Positions 27,620 to 61,881 are shown, counted from the stretch's first letter. The stretch: DNA of 64,000 nucleotides from GCF_988243305.1 NZ_OZ547136.1, one strand, 5' to 3'. A program made the numbers and translations. The notes: a model not told the origin generated them from the letters alone.

Positions 27620-27719
27620 TTATATGCCTTTATTTGCTTTTTTATGCCACTGCATACTGATTAACCCTCATTAATCAGTCGGCAAGTCCATTCTCCCCAA
27701 AAATGCAGAATAATCCAAC

Positions 27720-27790
27720 ACGAATATGATACTAAAACTTTTAAGATGTTTCATTTATCGCTATAGATGTTTCAAAATGTAAATGCAAGG
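27720..27790 (-). promoter_or_regulatory. OmpR-binding region of the ompC promoter (C1-like site TTTACATTTTGAAACATCTATAG on the minus strand)
   Basis: Minus-strand sequence of 27761-27786 is GCATTTACATTTTGAAACATCTATAG; a second similar motif (..AAATGAAACATCTTAA) is adjacent. Confidence 0.7.
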
Positions 27791-27938
27791 GAACTTTTTA
27801 AGATTATTGTGGAATGGCGAAATAAGCACCTAACATCAAGCAATAATAATTCAAGGTTAAAATCAATAACTTATTCTTAAGTATTTGACAGCACTGAATG
27901 TCAAAACAAAACCTTCACTCGCAACTAGAATAACTCCC

Positions 27939-28031
27939 GCTATCATCATTAACTTTATTTATTACCGTCATTCATTTCTGAATGTCTGTTTACCCCTATT
28001 TCAACCGGATGCCTCGCATCCGGTTTTTTTT
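27939..28031 (+). ncRNA. micF: MicF antisense small RNA (regulator of ompF), divergent from ompC
   Basis: GCTATCATCATTAACTTTATTTATTACCGTCATTCATTTCTGAATGTCTGTTTACCCC... ending in hairpin CCGGATGCCTCGCATCCGG plus T8; recognised as micF. Putative -10 TAGAAT at 27926-27931. Confidence 0.88.
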
Positions 28032-28342
28032 ACCCTTCTTTACACACTTTTCATTATTCTGTGCTACCACAGAAAAACTATAACGCTTGTTAACTATTTC
28101 ACAAATAATTAACATCAGCATAATTTCCAGCAATCTTCGTTTATTTGCAATTAATTTCTTTGGGCTTTTTGTAGGTTATTTGTACAGCAAAATGGCGCTT
28201 GTACATCTATTTCCCCCAATGCAGGATGATAAATATCACGGGAGAATAGAGAATCATCAATCAGGTAAGAGTCTGGAATTTCACACTGTACCCTTTATAC
28301 TGCCCTATCACTTCGCGAAGTTTTAACAGGTCATAAACACGA

Positions 28343-55111: not shown

Positions 55112-55119
55112 AATTGTTA

Positions 55120-55149
55120 GCCGGATAAGGTGCTCGCACCACATCCGGC
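55120..55149. repeat. REP element between convergent ubiG and yfaL
   Basis: GCCGGATAAGGTGCTCGCACCACATCCGGC, a typical REP palindrome. Confidence 0.75.
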
Positions 55150-55171
55150 TACAATGCCGGGCGCAAAGCAG

Positions 55172-58100
55172 CTACCATTTCACCGTCATCGACAAAAACC
55201 CTGCCGTCTGGGCAAAATCATCACTCCCTTTCTGCCACGCCACGTTACCACGCAGGGACACTCGCTGACTGATATTGCCCGTGACTCCCACTTTTATTTC
55301 ACCCCGTTGCTTCACCGCATCGTCACTGATAGTGCTGCCATCTTCTTCAATTTTCGTCGCATGGGGATCGTGATAATAATTCAGATCTAATGTTGGTATG
55401 ACATGAACAGAGGTACGCCATTCGCTGTGTAAACCCAGCCGCGTTTGAATATCATCACCCTGCGATTGTGACACGCGCGCATGGTTAGCGGCGGTAAAAT
55501 CATCCTGCTGCACGCCCTGATAAATCACCTGCGCCTGCGGTTCAACCACCACACCACGCCCCGGTAACCACTGATACCCCGCTTCCAGCGAGGCGATAAT
55601 CCCCGACGAATGGTAATGATCTGTGCCATCGTCTTGTTCGGAAACATCATTGTTAAACCACGCGTATTGCAGCCAGCTATCCAGCCAGGCCCCCTGCTTC
55701 TGATTACCGTGCTGAAACCAGCTTGAGGTCAGACCAACGGCATAACCGTGGTTCTGGTTATCGGCGCGAGTTCCGGTCATATTCGAGCGGCTGTCGCCCT
55801 GGTTATCACTGTAGCCACCAACCGCCCCAAGCATCCACTCGCCATCCGCGCCCCAGCGCCCGCTAAACAAGTCGCCGCTAAGCTGCACCGTAGAAGTGTC
55901 TTCATGCTGAGCCAGTTGCCCCGCTGCTGTGTAATGATAATTTCCGCCGATAACACGTAAATTCAGCGTCTGACCATCGCCACCAGCGTGATCGTGTCGC
56001 TCCATCACAAACGCCTGATTTGCCGCCCGCAGGTTATTAAAATATCCACCAACTTTGGCATTCAACACCGGCTGGTAGGCAGGCGTAGGTTCCGGGTCGG
56101 GTGTTGGATCAGGAGTCGGGTCTGGATCAGGTGGCGATGGTGGCGTTGCTTCTTGCGATCGCAGATACCAGTCGTTGTTATCTTCCACCAGCGTGTAGTC
56201 ATACGCTCCCATATTGACGTAGCCGCTGCCCGCCAGACTGAACTGCGCATTGTTTTGAAATTGCGTTGGATCGGCTGCGAAATCAACCACTTTAATGCCT
56301 GTAGATGTCGGCTCACCAATACCCGTAATGGGATTAATTACCACGGTCGTGTTGCCAGCAGTATTACCGTTCAACACCAGTTGGTCACTTGCCGAGTCAT
56401 CGCCGTTTAATTCGCTATCGAGCAGTAGCGTACCACCGCCGGTATAATCACCGTTTACCGTCAGCGTGTCGCCGGCGACGCCATTTTGCAGGCTGACCGC
56501 ACCGGACGTATTGGTCAGATTGCCATTAACTGTTACGTCGGAAAGATAAGTCAGGCTGTCAGTTTCAAGGTTGGTGTTAAGCTCGCCTGTCAACGTCACG
56601 CCATCGGTGGCATTCACCAGCGTCCCATCGCCGTTAAACAGTGAGGCATTAAGGGCGACGGAAGTATCCTGCCCGGTCAGGCGCAAAACCGTACCATCGC
56701 TGATGTCGATAGTGCCGCTGGAAGTAACATCAATTGACTGAATATCCTGATCCGCGCCAGTCTTGAACGTTGCCCCGCCACCGACCCACAGCGACGAAGC
56801 ATAAGGGAAGATATCCGCAACATCGCCTTGCAGCGTGCCTTCTTCGACACGTACCGCCGACTGCGTCGTACCGCTGGCGGTCAGTTCCAGCGTACCCGCC
56901 CCCGTTTTCGTCAATGTGCTACCCTCATCCTGATGCTGCCCGCTGCTGTCAGCCATCAGTGCGCCCCACTGCGTGTCTACCCCCGCATCAACTGCCACTT
57001 CACCGTCGGCGCGCATTTCAATATCACGCCCATGCTCAGTCGTTGTAGAGCGAGTATCGACATTTGCAGTAATCTCCATCACGCTTTCTTGTTGATTATC
57101 GGTAAAGATAACCTGGCGGTTGTAATGGGTATCTCCAAGCTGCGAGTTGTCGCTCACCACCAGCGTACCGGAAGCGATTTGCGTGGTGCCCAGGTAACTA
57201 TTATTGTTTGCCAGGCTAATCAGCCCGTCGCCCGCATCGACCACCACGTAGACGCCATCTTTCCCGTCGCCGCCGATATGCAAATTGTCGCCACCTGCGA
57301 GATCCACCACATCCTGACTGCCGATAACCGTACCGCCGCTGCCGCTGACTGCAAGGCCATCGTTGTATGATGTGCCGCTCTGCCAGGTGGCGAAATCAGA
57401 GAGATCAAGCACACCGCCGTTTAACACGATCGACTGCGGATCGTCCTGGAGAGCGGCAAGATCTGCCGCGTCGCCTTCCAGCGAAAGCACCGCACCATCA
57501 TCAACGACTATATCGCCAGTTAGCGCCATCGACTGTGCCCCTGCCAGCACGTAGCTGCCGTTTTGCGCAATGGTGAGCTGACCAGCACCTTCGATGGTGC
57601 CAGCAAAACTGCCCTGATTAACAGTAACGTTGCCACCAGCATCGATATTTAAAGTGCCATTCTGAAAGCCCGTCAATGCGTGCACAAAAGTTTGTTGGGT
57701 CGAGCCAACGTTTAGCTCAGCCTGATTCTGATACTGATCAATACTCCCTATCGTCAGACCGTAGCAGTCTTGCGTATCGTCCTGGCAATGCGTATCGCCG
57801 ACATTCATCAGGGAGTTGCTGCGGCCCAGGGTAACTTCACCGTTTTCAATCTGCATCTCGCCAGTAAAGTCATTGTTATCTGCATTAAGTACCAGATCGC
57901 CGGAACCTGTTTTGGTGATTAACCCGGTACCAGCAATAGAGTCAACAGCTCCGTCATTCTCTGTATTGCCGATAACCAGCGTTTTTCCGTCGGCAATATC
58001 AAAGGTAACGTCACTTAAGCCGAGATACATAAAGCCACCCGCCGCAGTGGAAGGACCATCTCCATAGCCTGCTGCGCTATTGTTCTCATCCACTAAAACA

Positions 58101-58900
58101 CCGTTGTTCTGGCTGTAGCTGTCATCAACTGAAATATCAATAAGATAGGGAGCCGTCACGCTATTGGTATAAATCGCCCCGCCATATCCCTCAGCAGAGT
58201 TATTTGTAAATGCGGTGTTATTTATTATTGTGAAACCTGACGGATGCGTGATATCGCTATTATTATCGGTGACATCGATTGCCCCTCCATCGCCATCACT
58301 GTAACTTGTTGATGTATATGCCTGGTTATTGTCAAAAATAACTTCATTTAAATAGACGTCATTGTTGATGGTATAAATTGCACCACCTTTGCCGTCATTA
58401 GCGATGTTATTGCGAAACACGGCGTTAGTGACACGTAAATCGACGACACCGGTATCGTTAGTACCAGAAGAATAGATTGCGCCACCATAGCCACCTGCAA
58501 CGTTACCGGAAAAAATAACATTAGTAAGATTCAGCGTTGAGTTTTCTTTAGCAAATATTGCCCCGCCGTTATTATATTCTCCTGAGACAGTATTATTGGC
58601 AAACAGAGTCATTCCAGTTTCATTTTCTGGCGATAGAGAAAACTCCGCTCCTTGTTGCAAAAATACGGCCCCACCGCTGGCGTTATTAGTCATATCCGAA
58701 AAAACCAGCCATTGCCCATCGGCGATGCTCCAGTCCTGCGTAATGCCTGAAAGGCTTTGCCTGCTGGCGTGACAACTCGCTTTGATATCATATCCCTGAC
58801 ATGAATCAATGACCGCCGCGACACCGTTAGCAGAGAAAAGAGATGCAATCATTGACGGGAGTAAAGATAAATACTCCTTGCGTAGAAAAATAATCCGCAT
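55172..58900 (-). CDS. yfaL: Autotransporter adhesin YfaL (EhaC-like), 1242 codons
   Basis: Large ORF with signal peptide, repetitive Gly/Thr/Asn/Asp-rich passenger domain, Pro-rich linker (PPSPPDPDPTPDPTPDPEPTP) and C-terminal beta-barrel ending ..LSMTVKW. Confidence 0.9.
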   Translation of the reverse strand: MRIIFLRKEYLSLLPSMIASLFSANGVAAVIDSCQGYDIKASCHASRQSLSGITQDWSIADGQWLVFSDMTNNASGGAVFLQQGAEFSLSPENETGMTLFANNTVSGEYNNGGAIFAKENSTLNLTNVIFSGNVAGGYGGAIYSSGTNDTGVVDLRVTNAVFRNNIANDGKGGAIYTINNDVYLNEVIFDNNQAYTSTSYSDGDGGAIDVTDNNSDITHPSGFTIINNTAFTNNSAEGYGGAIYTNSVTAPYLIDISVDDSYSQNNGVLVDENNSAAGYGDGPSTAAGGFMYLGLSDVTFDIADGKTLVIGNTENDGAVDSIAGTGLITKTGSGDLVLNADNNDFTGEMQIENGEVTLGRSNSLMNVGDTHCQDDTQDCYGLTIGSIDQYQNQAELNVGSTQQTFVHALTGFQNGTLNIDAGGNVTVNQGSFAGTIEGAGQLTIAQNGSYVLAGAQSMALTGDIVVDDGAVLSLEGDAADLAALQDDPQSIVLNGGVLDLSDFATWQSGTSYNDGLAVSGSGGTVIGSQDVVDLAGGDNLHIGGDGKDGVYVVVDAGDGLISLANNNSYLGTTQIASGTLVVSDNSQLGDTHYNRQVIFTDNQQESVMEITANVDTRSTTTEHGRDIEMRADGEVAVDAGVDTQWGALMADSSGQHQDEGSTLTKTGAGTLELTASGTTQSAVRVEEGTLQGDVADIFPYASSLWVGGGATFKTGADQDIQSIDVTSSGTIDISDGTVLRLTGQDTSVALNASLFNGDGTLVNATDGVTLTGELNTNLETDSLTYLSDVTVNGNLTNTSGAVSLQNGVAGDTLTVNGDYTGGGTLLLDSELNGDDSASDQLVLNGNTAGNTTVVINPITGIGEPTSTGIKVVDFAADPTQFQNNAQFSLAGSGYVNMGAYDYTLVEDNNDWYLRSQEATPPSPPDPDPTPDPTPDPEPTPAYQPVLNAKVGGYFNNLRAANQAFVMERHDHAGGDGQTLNLRVIGGNYHYTAAGQLAQHEDTSTVQLSGDLFSGRWGADGEWMLGAVGGYSDNQGDSRSNMTGTRADNQNHGYAVGLTSSWFQHGNQKQGAWLDSWLQYAWFNNDVSEQDDGTDHYHSSGIIASLEAGYQWLPGRGVVVEPQAQVIYQGVQQDDFTAANHARVSQSQGDDIQTRLGLHSEWRTSVHVIPTLDLNYYHDPHATKIEEDGSTISDDAVKQRGEIKVGVTGNISQRVSLRGNVAWQKGSDDFAQTAGFLSMTVKW

Positions 58901-59433
58901 ATTAATCTGACCATCATTTTCTATAAGACGGCATATTTAATCGCATTATACGATATGGGTTATTTTTCTTTTGTAAATTGTTCAACCCGGTGCAATGGCT
59001 ATTTTGTTATTATTTCATGAATAATATCAGTGCGTCATAATTCAAGTTAATCACCTTAAGGGATATTAGTTATATTTAAACTGAATTAAAGTAATGAATA
59101 ATTTTCTTATAATATAAGGTAAATTAACAAAATGGCTTCGCATTTAACAATAACCGAAGAGAAAACAACCATTTCGATATCAACAATCGCTTACATTCGC
59201 TTATATATTGACCAGAACTGATACATCAGATTATGTGATGACTCGTGCTTAGATCAATTTTTGCAATCATTAGCCAAAAGATTAATAAACCATCTATATC
59301 AATTTATCTAACCTATTCTTCCGTTCAAGAAATCGCCGAACAGTTATTTTTAACAAATTTTTCTCTTCCCATTGACTTTCCCGGACACCTTGTCTGACCT
59401 AAGGTGCGCGAAAGCCACTTTTTCCTTCCTGAG

Positions 59434-59454
59434 TTATCCACAAAGTTATGCACT
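59434..59454 (+). promoter_or_regulatory. Tandem DnaA boxes upstream of the nrdA promoter
   Basis: TTATCCACA (59434-59442, perfect consensus) and TTATGCACT (59446-59454, 8/9). Confidence 0.8.
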
Positions 59455-59520
59455 TGCAAGAGGGCCATTTTCACACTATCTTGCAGTGAATCCCAAACAT
59501 ACCCCCTATATATAGTGTTC
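59454..59520 (+). promoter_or_regulatory. nrdAB promoter (-35 TTGCAA at 59454-59459, -10 TATCTT at 59477-59482) with putative NrdR boxes
   Basis: Hexamers with 17-bp spacing; partially palindromic elements CACACTATCTTGCAGTG (59473-59489) and CCTATATATAGTGTT (59504-59519) resemble NrdR boxes. Confidence 0.5.
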
Positions 59521-59595
59521 TAAGCAGCTTCCCTCACTACAGGTAGTCTGCATGAAACTATTGCGGAAAGAATTCCAAAAACAGGTACGACATAC

Positions 59596-61881
59596 ATGAA
59601 TCAGAATCTGCTGGTGACAAAGCGCGACGGTAGCACAGAGCGCATCAATCTCGACAAAATCCATCGCGTTCTGGATTGGGCGGCAGAAGGACTGCATAAC
59701 GTTTCGATTTCCCAGGTCGAACTGCGCTCCCACATTCAGTTTTATGACGGTATCAAGACCTCTGACATCCACGAAACCATTATCAAGGCTGCCGCAGACC
59801 TGATCTCCCGTGATGCGCCGGATTATCAGTATCTCGCCGCGCGCCTGGCAATCTTCCACCTGCGTAAAAAAGCCTACGGCCAGTTTGAGCCGCCTGCGCT
59901 GTACGACCACGTGGTGAAAATGGTCGAGATGGGCAAATACGATAATCATCTGCTGGAAGACTACACGGAAGAAGAGTTCAAGCAGATGGACACGTTTATC
60001 GATCACGACCGTGATATGACCTTCTCTTATGCTGCCGTTAAGCAGCTGGAAGGCAAATATCTGGTACAGAACCGCGTGACCGGCGAAATCTACGAAAGCG
60101 CCCAGTTCCTTTATATTCTGGTTGCCGCGTGCCTGTTCTCGAACTACCCGCGTGAAACGCGCCTGCAATACGTGAAGCGTTTTTACGACGCGGTTTCCAC
60201 ATTTAAAATTTCGCTGCCGACGCCAATCATGTCCGGCGTGCGTACCCCGACTCGTCAGTTCAGCTCCTGCGTACTGATCGAGTGCGGTGACAGCCTGGAT
60301 TCCATTAACGCCACCTCCAGCGCGATTGTTAAATACGTTTCCCAGCGTGCCGGGATCGGCATCAATGCCGGGCGTATTCGTGCGCTGGGTAGCCCGATTC
60401 GCGGTGGCGAAGCGTTCCATACCGGTTGTATTCCGTTCTATAAGCATTTCCAGACAGCGGTGAAATCCTGCTCTCAGGGCGGTGTGCGTGGCGGTGCGGC
60501 TACGCTGTTCTACCCGATGTGGCATCTGGAAGTGGAAAGCCTGCTGGTGTTGAAAAACAACCGTGGGGTGGAAGGCAACCGCGTGCGTCACATGGACTAC
60601 GGGGTACAAATCAACAAACTGATGTATACCCGTCTGCTGAAAGGTGAAGATATCACTCTGTTCAGCCCGTCCGACGTACCGGGGTTGTACGACGCGTTCT
60701 TCGCCGATCAGGAAGAGTTTGAACGCCTGTACACCAAATATGAGAAAGACGACAGCATCCGCAAGCAGCGTGTGAAAGCCGTTGAGCTGTTCTCGCTGAT
60801 GATGCAGGAACGTGCGTCTACCGGTCGTATCTATATTCAGAACGTTGACCACTGCAATACCCATAGCCCGTTTGATCCGGCCATCGCGCCAGTGCGCCAG
60901 TCTAACCTGTGCCTGGAAATCGCCCTGCCGACCAAACCGCTGAATGATGTCAACGACGAGAACGGTGAAATCGCGCTGTGTACGCTGTCTGCTTTCAACC
61001 TGGGCGCAATTAATAGCCTGGATGAACTGGAAGAGCTGGCGATTCTGGCGGTACGCGCACTCGACGCGCTGCTGGACTATCAGGATTACCCGATCCCGGC
61101 CGCCAAACGTGGAGCGATGGGTCGTCGTACGCTGGGTATTGGTGTGATCAACTTCGCTTACTACCTGGCGAAGCACGGTAAACGCTACTCCGACGGCAGC
61201 GCCAACAACCTGACGCATAAAACCTTCGAAGCCATTCAGTATTACCTGCTGAAAGCCTCTAATGAGCTGGCGAAAGAGCAAGGCGCGTGCCCGTGGTTTA
61301 ACGAAACCACTTACGCGAAAGGGATCCTGCCGATCGATACCTATAAGAAAGATCTGGATGCCATCGCTAATGAGCCGCTGCATTACGACTGGGAAGCACT
61401 GCGTGAGTCAATCAAAACGCACGGCCTGCGTAACTCCACGCTTTCTGCCCTGATGCCGTCCGAGACCTCTTCGCAGATCTCTAACGCCACTAACGGTATT
61501 GAACCGCCGCGCGGTTACGTCAGCATCAAAGCGTCGAAAGACGGTATTCTCCGCCAGGTGGTGCCTGACTACGAGCATCTGCACGACGCCTATGAGCTGC
61601 TGTGGGAAATGCCGGGTAACGATGGCTACCTGCAACTGGTGGGTATCATGCAGAAATTTATCGATCAGTCGATCTCTGCTAACACCAACTACGATCCGTC
61701 ACGCTTCCCGTCAGGAAAAGTGCCGATGCAGCAACTGCTGAAAGACCTGCTCACCGCCTACAAATTCGGGGTCAAAACGCTGTATTATCAGAACACCCGT
61801 GACGGTGCTGAAGACGCACAAGACGATCTGGTGCCGTCAATCCAGGACGATGGCTGCGAAAGCGGCGCATGCAAGATCTGA
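59596..61881 (+). CDS. nrdA: Class Ia ribonucleoside-diphosphate reductase alpha subunit NrdA
   Basis: 761-aa ORF MNQNLLVTKRDGSTERINLDKIHRVLDWAAEGL with ATP-cone and catalytic cysteines. Confidence 0.97.
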   Translation: MNQNLLVTKRDGSTERINLDKIHRVLDWAAEGLHNVSISQVELRSHIQFYDGIKTSDIHETIIKAAADLISRDAPDYQYLAARLAIFHLRKKAYGQFEPPALYDHVVKMVEMGKYDNHLLEDYTEEEFKQMDTFIDHDRDMTFSYAAVKQLEGKYLVQNRVTGEIYESAQFLYILVAACLFSNYPRETRLQYVKRFYDAVSTFKISLPTPIMSGVRTPTRQFSSCVLIECGDSLDSINATSSAIVKYVSQRAGIGINAGRIRALGSPIRGGEAFHTGCIPFYKHFQTAVKSCSQGGVRGGAATLFYPMWHLEVESLLVLKNNRGVEGNRVRHMDYGVQINKLMYTRLLKGEDITLFSPSDVPGLYDAFFADQEEFERLYTKYEKDDSIRKQRVKAVELFSLMMQERASTGRIYIQNVDHCNTHSPFDPAIAPVRQSNLCLEIALPTKPLNDVNDENGEIALCTLSAFNLGAINSLDELEELAILAVRALDALLDYQDYPIPAAKRGAMGRRTLGIGVINFAYYLAKHGKRYSDGSANNLTHKTFEAIQYYLLKASNELAKEQGACPWFNETTYAKGILPIDTYKKDLDAIANEPLHYDWEALRESIKTHGLRNSTLSALMPSETSSQISNATNGIEPPRGYVSIKASKDGILRQVVPDYEHLHDAYELLWEMPGNDGYLQLVGIMQKFIDQSISANTNYDPSRFPSGKVPMQQLLKDLLTAYKFGVKTLYYQNTRDGAEDAQDDLVPSIQDDGCESGACKI

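Follow-up and report, generated by a model that had tools for sequence, protein, structure and literature searches.

The window analysed here is a stretch of 64,000 nucleotides of NZ_OZ547136.1 (assembly GCF_988243305.1), to which all positions refer. It contains the divergent intergenic region of 695 bp that separates yfaL from nrdA, and the interval studied comprises positions 58901-59433 of this region. On the left, yfaL is transcribed away from nrdA, and its product was classified as an autotransporter by both Pfam and RefSeq, in agreement with the original prediction, which had placed a divergent adhesin gene there. On the right, the interval was predicted to be limited by the DnaA boxes of nrdA, and box TTATCCACA does indeed begin at position 59434. 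Over the 900 bp tested (58801-59700), the window was 100% identical to E. coli strain 118UI, and 5,423 out of 5,426 complete E. coli genomes matched this segment at a query cover of at least 80%. Identity to K-12 was 95.4% across the AT-rich part of the spacer. Features of the locus are compiled in Table 1.

Table 1. Genes, segments and candidate sites at the yfaL-nrdA locus (positions in the window).
Feature	Position	Strand	Basis and remarks
yfaL/ehaC, AIDA-I-type autotransporter adhesin	55172..58900	-	ORF; RefSeq; Pfam Autotransporter, AC_1, PATR, PMP repeat
Escherichia-specific AT-rich segment (421 bp, 28.5% GC); holds leader and promoter region of yfaL and forms the core of the 'promoter island' of K-12	58901..59321		Homology comparison, GC content, promoter scan (seven sites)
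Proximal promoter-like site TTTACA-16-TATCGT	58950..58977	-	Consensus scan; would give a leader of ~45 nt
Predicted Fis-like site, strict consensus, GCTTATATATTGACC	59199..59213		Pattern match; 1 observed vs 0.15 expected
Palindrome CTGATACATCAG, at predicted distal yfaL start site	59218..59229		Sequence; kept in E. coli lineages, deleted in other Escherichia species
Predicted σ70 promoter of yfaL, TTGATC-16-CATAAT	59230..59257	-	Consensus scan; would give a leader of ~320 nt
GATC (Dam) site, the only one in 58801-59600, within -35 element TTGATC	59252..59255		Motif search
H-NS-motif-like TAGATAAATT, one mismatch from TCGATAAATT	59301..59310	-	Motif scan
Ancestral control region upstream of nrdA, distal part; the region continues to 59595	59322..59433		Homology with other genera, from CGTTCAAGAAATC
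ypaB, annotated 47-codon ORF across the nrdA promoter	59325..59468	-	RefSeq; overlaps the last 109 bp of the interval
Two T5 tracts 11 bp apart (59347, 59358), TTTTTAACAAATTTTT	59347..59362		A/T tract at the equivalent place in other genera
HusR (YnfL) box CCGGACACCTTGTCTG	59381..59396		Exact match to published ypaB/nrdA spacer box (PMC12844172)
Second HusR (YnfL) box CACTTTTTCCTTCCTG	59416..59431		Exact match to published box (PMC12844172)
Two nrdA DnaA boxes, TTATCCACA and TTATGCACT	59434..59454	+	Motif search; directly right of the interval
nrdA	59596..61881	+	Flanks the interval on the right

The strong AT-richness that had been noted for these ~530 bp was borne out by the composition of the window. 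GC content of 58901-59433 was 31.7%, compared with 52.0% for the 64 kb as a whole. Only 0.2% of all 533-bp segments were as GC-poor, and every one of them overlapped the yfaL-nrdA locus; the minimum (0.296) was found in the segment starting at 58832. Within the locus, GC content was unevenly distributed, with 22-33% in 58901-59300, 37% in 59301-59400 and 44% in 59401-59500. The yfaL gene as a whole has a GC content of 51.6%, which is near the genome average. Since AT-rich DNA is limited to the upstream block and to ~600 bp at the start of the gene (43% GC), the 'foreign gene' signature of yfaL is only partial. The second GC-poorest spot of the window (32%) is the ompC-micF-rcsD intergenic region, which is likewise divergent and marked 'HNS' in the table of RpoD SELEX targets (PMC3946193). 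That region encodes the known sRNA micF, whereas the yfaL-nrdA interval is without a detectable RNA gene.

For a comparison of gene order, species-representative genomes were scanned once with a degenerate pattern derived from the 5' coding region of nrdA, and 120 loci were obtained. In 89 Enterobacterales species ubiG is the immediate upstream neighbour of nrdA and is transcribed in the same direction; the gap between the two genes has a median of 363 bp. Among the loci scanned, an intervening yfaL was restricted to E. coli-like, E. albertii and E. whittamii genomes and to enterobacterium RIT691, whose yfaL homologue is 54% identical. Three other species hold unrelated genes in the ubiG-nrdA gap.

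The regions upstream of nrdA were then aligned by MAFFT for Escherichia and for Salmonella, Citrobacter, Klebsiella, Enterobacter, Trabulsiella, Atlantibacter, Leclercia and Shimwellia. Homology between Escherichia and the other genera starts at position 59322 with CGTTCAAGAAATC; from there it passes the A/T tract, ATTGAC and the promoter, followed by the NrdR boxes. To the left of 59322 this alignment revealed no counterpart outside Escherichia. The cross-genus homology was visible only by MAFFT, as a BLASTN search of the spacer against other genera gave no match at an E value of 1e-3. Inside Escherichia, BLASTN of 59322-59595 yielded 97% identity in L024 (strain SCPM-O-B-8794, a divergent 'E. 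coli' which is a separate species representative in GTDB) and 89% in E. whittamii; the AT-rich block gave no detectable match in either genome. Divergence inside Escherichia thus drops sharply at 59322, and this junction coincides with the start of the cross-genus homology. A search for target-site duplications or terminal repeats around the yfaL insertion found that the longest word common to both junctions comprises 6-7 nt, which is the chance level. It was also considered whether L024 had received an E. albertii-like yfaL plus upstream allele by recombination with a breakpoint at 59322. Such an event need not be invoked, because L024 represents a species of its own and purifying selection alone can explain the conservation on the nrdA side.

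The interval 58901-59433 is best explained as non-coding control DNA composed of two pieces of different origin, a lineage-specific AT-rich block of 421 bp and the distal 112 bp of the ancestral nrdA control region, with the former mediating silencing of yfaL by H-NS. We consider this explanation as a whole to be quite probable. Its anatomical and evolutionary parts, i.e. the arrangement and origin of the two pieces, their conservation, and the absence of both conserved ORFs and RNA signals, were observed directly in the comparisons described here.

The right-hand piece is highly conserved. Positions 59322-59433 are 98-100% identical among E. coli lineages, and identity between Escherichia lineages amounts to 86-97% over the longer BLAST matches that reach 59595. 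The two T5 tracts in this piece presumably correspond to the 'upstream AT-rich sequence' of Sun et al. 1994. Beyond this piece, the control region continues with the DnaA boxes, and further on with the -35 and -10 elements and the NrdR boxes of nrdA. The right 112 bp of the interval thereby belong to the nrd upstream region characterized by the Fuchs laboratory, with a Fis site, an AT-rich element and DnaA boxes, to which NrdR, H-NS and HusR were added later, while the left 421 bp, which lack homology with nrdA upstream DNA of other Enterobacteriaceae, lie outside this conserved region. Reported activators of nrdAB are Fis, DnaA and IciA, and H-NS is a reported repressor (PMC4009431); reviews add NrdR as a further repressor. 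In addition, an FNR ChIP peak that was assigned to nrdAB maps to approximately position 59294.

The original prediction had assigned upstream activation of nrdAB to the AT-rich stretch and had described it as curved DNA of the type bound by H-NS and Fis. Taken further, this would mean that the whole AT-rich block serves mainly as an upstream activator of nrdAB, with RNA polymerase being recruited or stabilised at the nrdA promoter through Fis sites and DNA bending. Consistent with this are the published role of Fis in nrdAB activation, the strict Fis-like match at 59199-59213, which lies in a stretch well conserved among E. coli lineages, the location of the FNR peak, and an AA/TT periodicity with its maximum at 10.75 bp. 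However, this periodicity, by which alone curvature was assessed, was not significant (p ~0.06), and clear phasing was seen only for the two T5 tracts (59347 and 59358), which lie outside the block in the ancestral nrdA part; curvature of the block is thus weakly supported. Moreover, 89 other species run nrdA with ~363 bp of upstream DNA and with ubiG in the place of the block, which therefore cannot be a general nrdAB activation module. Finally, identity of the block is as low as 56-58% between Escherichia lineages, as opposed to the high conservation of nrdA and its proximal region. An activating role for the bulk of the segment is thus improbable in our view. The block may nevertheless make an E. 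coli-specific contribution to nrdAB, for example via the predicted Fis-like site at 59199.

With respect to coding capacity, ORFs of at least 60 codons were absent from the interval, as had been predicted; the longest ORFs overlapping it comprise 50 amino acids (59245..59397, + strand, GTG start) and 49 amino acids (59325..59474, - strand). In calling the region untranslated, the original prediction had overlooked the annotated ypaB, although ypaB does not behave as a conserved gene. That the interval codes for at least one small protein, either YpaB or the product of the 50-codon GTG ORF, might be concluded from the annotation of ypaB in most E. coli genomes, from a HusR-dependent increase of 'ypaB' mRNA (PMC12844172), and from the finding that the 50-codon ORF is intact in four out of four E. 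coli lineages. Yet the ATG start codon of ypaB is changed to CTG in phylogroup B2, codon 18 is a stop in both E. albertii and E. whittamii, and in strain EC2001 the ORF carries an internal stop and is annotated as a pseudogene by RefSeq. No Pfam or NCBIfam family was found for ypaB. Conservation of its sequence can be attributed to the overlying DnaA boxes and -35 element, and its CRISPRi phenotype has been ascribed to a block of the nrdA promoter (bioRxiv 10.1101/308916). The 50-codon ORF straddles the junction at 59322, differs from its B2 counterpart in nine amino acids and, as read from the alignment, contains a stop at codon 11 in L024. Neither this ORF nor one of 29 codons gave a meaningful match to a protein family, and among the ORFs of at least 20 amino acids that lie wholly in 58901-59321 there is none that is intact in all four E. 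coli lineages. Hence, ypaB is probably an annotation artefact over the nrdA promoter and not a real gene, and we hold a protein-coding function of the interval to be extremely unlikely.

The prediction had also left room for short ORFs or an sRNA. Formally this stays valid, but neither a conserved ORF nor any of the RNA signals searched for was detected. An Rfam scan of 58000-60500 at E ≤ 10 returned two snoRNA matches that represent noise and nothing else, and scans for tRNA and tmRNA genes and for intrinsic terminators were negative. Fold z-scores of the block were -0.37 for the putative yfaL leader and -0.02 for the + strand, i.e. there is no stable fold. The only dispersed repeat is a 13-nt inverted repeat that brackets the yfaL start codon, and the only tandem repeat in the region is a 10-mer in 2.1 copies at 59183-59203. 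The stem that could form around the yfaL start codon was evaluated as a candidate structure and rejected: 84.6% of its positions are paired, with one compensatory pair, but shuffled sequences did equally well in 377 of 500 cases, and RNAalifold chose a different register. A functional RNA originating from the block, be it an sRNA or a ~320-nt yfaL leader that is subject to attenuation or Rho-dependent termination, would be in line with the leader length implied by the conserved distal promoter, with the inverted repeat and its compensatory change, and with the short transcripts reported for promoter islands. Against it stand the negative scans and z-scores, covariation that does not exceed that of shuffles, and the fact that the block sequence is saturated between Escherichia lineages. 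We rate this explanation as highly unlikely.

Promoter-like sites were identified with a simple σ70 consensus scan, which differs from the PlatProm algorithm. Seven sites were found in the 533 bp, which is the maximum in the 64-kb window (mean of 0.67 per kb), and four of them are oriented towards yfaL. Composition-matched shuffles of the interval contained 2.6 ± 1.6 such sites. In the corresponding sequences of other lineages (B2, four sites; L024, two; E. albertii, three; E. whittamii, one) there was no surplus over shuffles, so that the excess is confined to the window and K-12 sequences. Frequency of -10-like hexamers was no higher than predicted by composition, and 50 TpA steps were observed versus 53.7 expected. 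Because the excess is not conserved, and -10-like hexamers and TpA steps are at the level set by composition, we conclude that the density of promoter-like sites is largely a by-product of AT-richness, which argues against a selected trait.

Among the sites oriented towards yfaL, TTGATC-16-CATAAT is the sole one kept across the window, K-12 and B2. It falls in the stretch 59191-59290, which is 90-94% identical to B2. The same hexamers (TTGATC/CATAAT) were assigned to yfaL by genomic SELEX with RpoD, where the spacer carries the flag 'HNS' (PMC3946193). Of the proximal site, a TTGTAA block (+ strand) is invariant in six of six aligned Escherichia sequences, and the full site is lost in B2. The interval was also scanned for sequences resembling TCGATAAATT, reportedly the high-affinity motif for H-NS of Lang et al. 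2007. This revealed one match with a single mismatch (Table 1) and one with two mismatches.

The position of the interval relative to published K-12 data was determined from NC_000913.3, in which yfaL occupies 2340417-2344169 and nrdA starts at 2344865, and from an offset between MG1655 coordinates of versions 2 and 3 which we take to be ~1,977 bp. With this assumed offset, a HusR SELEX peak at 2,342,734 is placed at approximately 59443 in the window, beside the HusR boxes. The 'promoter island' 2342143_534 (2342143-2342676, 534 bp, yfaL(-)/ypaB(-)) described by Panyukov and Ozoline in 2013 (PMC3661553) likewise maps to approximately 58851-59384 and covers nearly the whole interval. In the K-12 summary table, this island is scored 'A', meaning that it was bound by H-NS in all ChIP-chip studies compared, and it is also scored as overlapping a predicted genomic island (PMC3661553). 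The locus in the window shares with the K-12 island its location, the dense promoter-like sites, H-NS occupancy as known from K-12, and a horizontally acquired neighbour gene; it differs in that the window is derived from another strain and in that the excess of promoter-like sites is a trait of the K-12-like lineage alone.

Promoter islands are defined by an exceptional density of predicted start points over at least 300 bp and by a horizontally acquired neighbour. Such a density was found here with the consensus scan, and acquisition of the neighbour is indicated by the ubiG-nrdA gap that is without yfaL in 89 species. Similarly, silencing targets of H-NS are characterized by several hundred bp of DNA whose AT content far exceeds the genome average, and the 28.5% GC over 421 bp agrees with this. 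Promoter islands are generally described as binding RNA polymerase and yielding little productive transcription. An RpoD SELEX peak is located at the yfaL spacer (PMC3946193). In laboratory strains yfaL is cryptic and is classed among the cryptic adhesins, and a biofilm phenotype of yfaL was seen only when a constitutive promoter had been inserted upstream (PMC3764049). GadE and GadX have been reported as regulators of yfaL. Occupancy by H-NS, binding of RNA polymerase, crypticity of yfaL and the links to HusR, FNR, GadE and GadX are thus known from the literature. The predicted binding of H-NS is thereby corroborated for K-12 (PMC3661553, PMC3946193), and the idea that yfaL is silenced agrees with the need for an inserted promoter (PMC3764049).

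A mechanism can be proposed on this basis, in which H-NS would bind to the block because of its AT-rich composition. The extreme AT content of the 421 bp would provide a platform for nucleation and spreading of H-NS, which would occlude or trap RNA polymerase and thus keep yfaL cryptic. The block would hold the leader and the promoter or promoters of yfaL, with TTGATC-16-CATAAT as the best candidate, and it might act as a sink for RNA polymerase, so that the yfaL promoters would not be productive before counter-silencing factors come into play. That H-NS bound to 58901-59321 is the cause of yfaL silencing is what we infer from these data.

Other cryptic adhesin loci listed in the same published table of islands (ycgV/ychF, fimB/fimE/fimA, yadN and yehD) also have an AT-rich, H-NS-bound intergenic block, located ahead of a surface adhesin gene that stays silent in cells cultured in the laboratory. 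Unlike these, the yfaL block lies in one intergenic region together with the promoter that drives the essential and highly conserved nrdAB operon, and a sharp junction at 59322 separates it from the nrdA control DNA. Together with ycgV, yfaL has been described as a homologue of Ag43, and it has been named among genes differentially methylated in biofilms. The regulatory region of this related autotransporter adhesin gene, agn43 (flu), contains a Dam/OxyR switch that depends on three clustered GATC sites within the OxyR operator. A phase-variation switch of this type was considered for yfaL and rejected, as only one GATC (59252) is present within 58801-59600.

The AT-rich block was detected in 5,425 of 5,426 E. 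coli genomes. In phylogroup B2 it is 85.6% identical to the window, versus 92.7% for the nrdA-proximal segment 59322-59595, where the difference is mostly due to one 13-bp deletion in the nrdA leader. Along the block, identity to B2 is lowest in 58941-59190 (74-86%) and rises in the stretch that contains the distal promoter. In the other Escherichia lineages, where global alignment gives the 56-58% identity mentioned above, GC content (26-29%) and length (420-431 bp) of the block are nevertheless maintained. The adjacent coding sequences served as a neutral benchmark: identity to L024 at four-fold degenerate sites is 0.84 for nrdA, 0.35-0.47 for the yfaL passenger domain (codons 1-750) and 0.61-0.79 for the translocator domain. 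As the values for the passenger domain are far below that of nrdA, the AT-rich block and the passenger domain can be regarded as one hypervariable unit.

In view of this variability, the block might lack any selected function and represent a decaying spacer beside an inserted gene, which is AT-rich by mutational bias and binds H-NS incidentally. Its very fast divergence, the unconserved excess of promoter-like sites, an IS5-family insertion inside the block that is tolerated in one strain, and the occurrence of yfaL as a pseudogene in some strains are all compatible with decay. It is difficult, however, to reconcile with the GC content and length that are held in all lineages despite saturation, with the contrast between 59191-59290 and 58941-59190 in identity to B2, and with retention of the block in nearly all E. 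coli genomes and of the distal promoter within E. coli. Absence of function is therefore quite unlikely in our judgement.

Within the preferred explanation of the block as H-NS-bound control DNA of yfaL, a more specific role can be put forward tentatively. The ~420 bp might be kept for composition and length and not for sequence and, lying between the silenced yfaL and the nrdAB promoter, serve as a buffer by taking up H-NS and RNA polymerase. Such a role would account for (i) the persistence of GC content and length at 56-58% identity; (ii) the drop of divergence at 59322; and (iii) the fact that the excess of promoter-like sites is itself unconserved. We see it as a conceivable but rather unlikely refinement.

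For K-12, the literature already describes this locus both as a promoter island bound by H-NS and as nrd control DNA. The feature is genuine but unremarkable, and the importance of the present analysis beyond annotation is slight. What the comparison adds is the junction at 59322 as a clean boundary between lineage-specific yfaL control DNA and ancestral nrdA control DNA, which can therefore serve as the cut point for reporter fusions to nrdA or yfaL. At this boundary, the hypervariable unit formed by the yfaL passenger domain and its upstream DNA adjoins one of the most conserved operons, nrdAB. If the block did act as a buffer, alleles of yfaL could be swapped or silenced without disturbing the control of nrdAB, and position 59322 would be the fixed boundary between the two.

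The autotransporter adhesin gene yfaL is a hypervariable surface-protein locus. When it was compared with comparison sequences L024 (the divergent strain SCPM-O-B-8794), L005 and L124, the passenger domain was found to be saturated at four-fold degenerate sites, with an identity to L024 of only 0.35-0.47; the corresponding values versus L024 were 0.61-0.79 for the translocator domain and 0.84 for the adjacent nrdA gene. In strain NH-21 (L126), yfaL is a truncated pseudogene. A REP-like hairpin (fold energy -27.8 kcal/mol, z-score -3.6) lies inside the 60-bp gap where ubiG and yfaL converge.

Several features were located in or beside the AT-rich block that precedes yfaL. One E. coli strain, EC2001, carries an IS5-family, ISKpn26-like element within it. 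A short tandem repeat is situated just upstream of the Fis-like match, in a stretch that is well conserved among E. coli lineages. Further, a 13-nt A/U-rich inverted repeat would allow the yfaL 5' UTR to pair with codons 2-6, thereby enclosing the start codon; comparison of four E. coli lineages showed one compensatory change, a result that cannot be told apart statistically from chance. Elsewhere in the window, the stretch with the second lowest GC content is the known micF locus between ompC and rcsD.

Alignment of upstream regions (comparison sequences L077, L110, L055, L052, L066, L022 and others) showed that the nrdA promoter of Escherichia is arranged unlike that of other genera. In Escherichia, two DnaA boxes are located immediately 5' of the -35 element, whereas in Salmonella, Citrobacter, Klebsiella, Enterobacter and others the nrdA leader carries an inverted pair, TTATCCACAG...CTGTGGATAA, 3' of the second NrdR box. 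Within the 5' leader, 13 bp are missing from phylogroup B2 strains (EC958 and other ST131), and 11 bp are missing at the same position in E. whittamii.

The nrdA upstream region has a counterpart in P1/P7-family phages, where it adjoins hot/upfO, and this copy is also present beside hot/upfO at more than 300 sites on E. coli plasmids. It contains (i) T-tracts; (ii) one HusR box; (iii) both DnaA boxes; (iv) the -35 element. Identity is 95% for P7 and SJ46 and approximately 83% for P1. In GenBank M95666 and NC_005856 the copy already bears the annotations 'nrdA-like promoter' and 'dnaA box'.

Features and their locations (window positions unless a comparison sequence is named)
Feature	Location	Remark
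ompC-rcsD intergenic region	~27629-28160	32% GC
REP-like hairpin	55113-55155	GCCGGATAAGG...CCACATCCGGC
yfaL	55172-58900	
Inverted repeat	58884-58896 + 58957-58969	
IS5-family insertion	L125 (EC2001) about 3238-4500	equivalent to window ~59138/59139
Tandem repeat	59183-59203	ACAATCGCTT x 2.1
nrdA-upstream copy	59343-59472; L128 (phage P1) 1201-1315; L003 3001-3115; L127 2501-2639	
nrdA promoter alignment	59434-59560	
Leader segment missing in B2	59564-59576	CGGAAAGAATTCC
ubiG-nrdA gap, Mixta (L049, L035)		5.7-6.4 kb; metabolic or transport genes
ubiG-nrdA gap, Erwinia oleae (L075)		2.4 kb low-GC DNA; two unknown ORFs
ubiG-nrdA gap, Enterobacteriaceae bacterium RIT691 (L032)		yfaL homologue, 54% identical

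In most Enterobacterales compared, ubiG is located directly upstream of nrdA, and in E. coli-like, E. albertii and E. whittamii genomes the gap between them harbors yfaL. As seen from the regions upstream of nrdA in Mixta, Erwinia oleae and strain RIT691, insertions into the ubiG-nrdA gap are recurrent.
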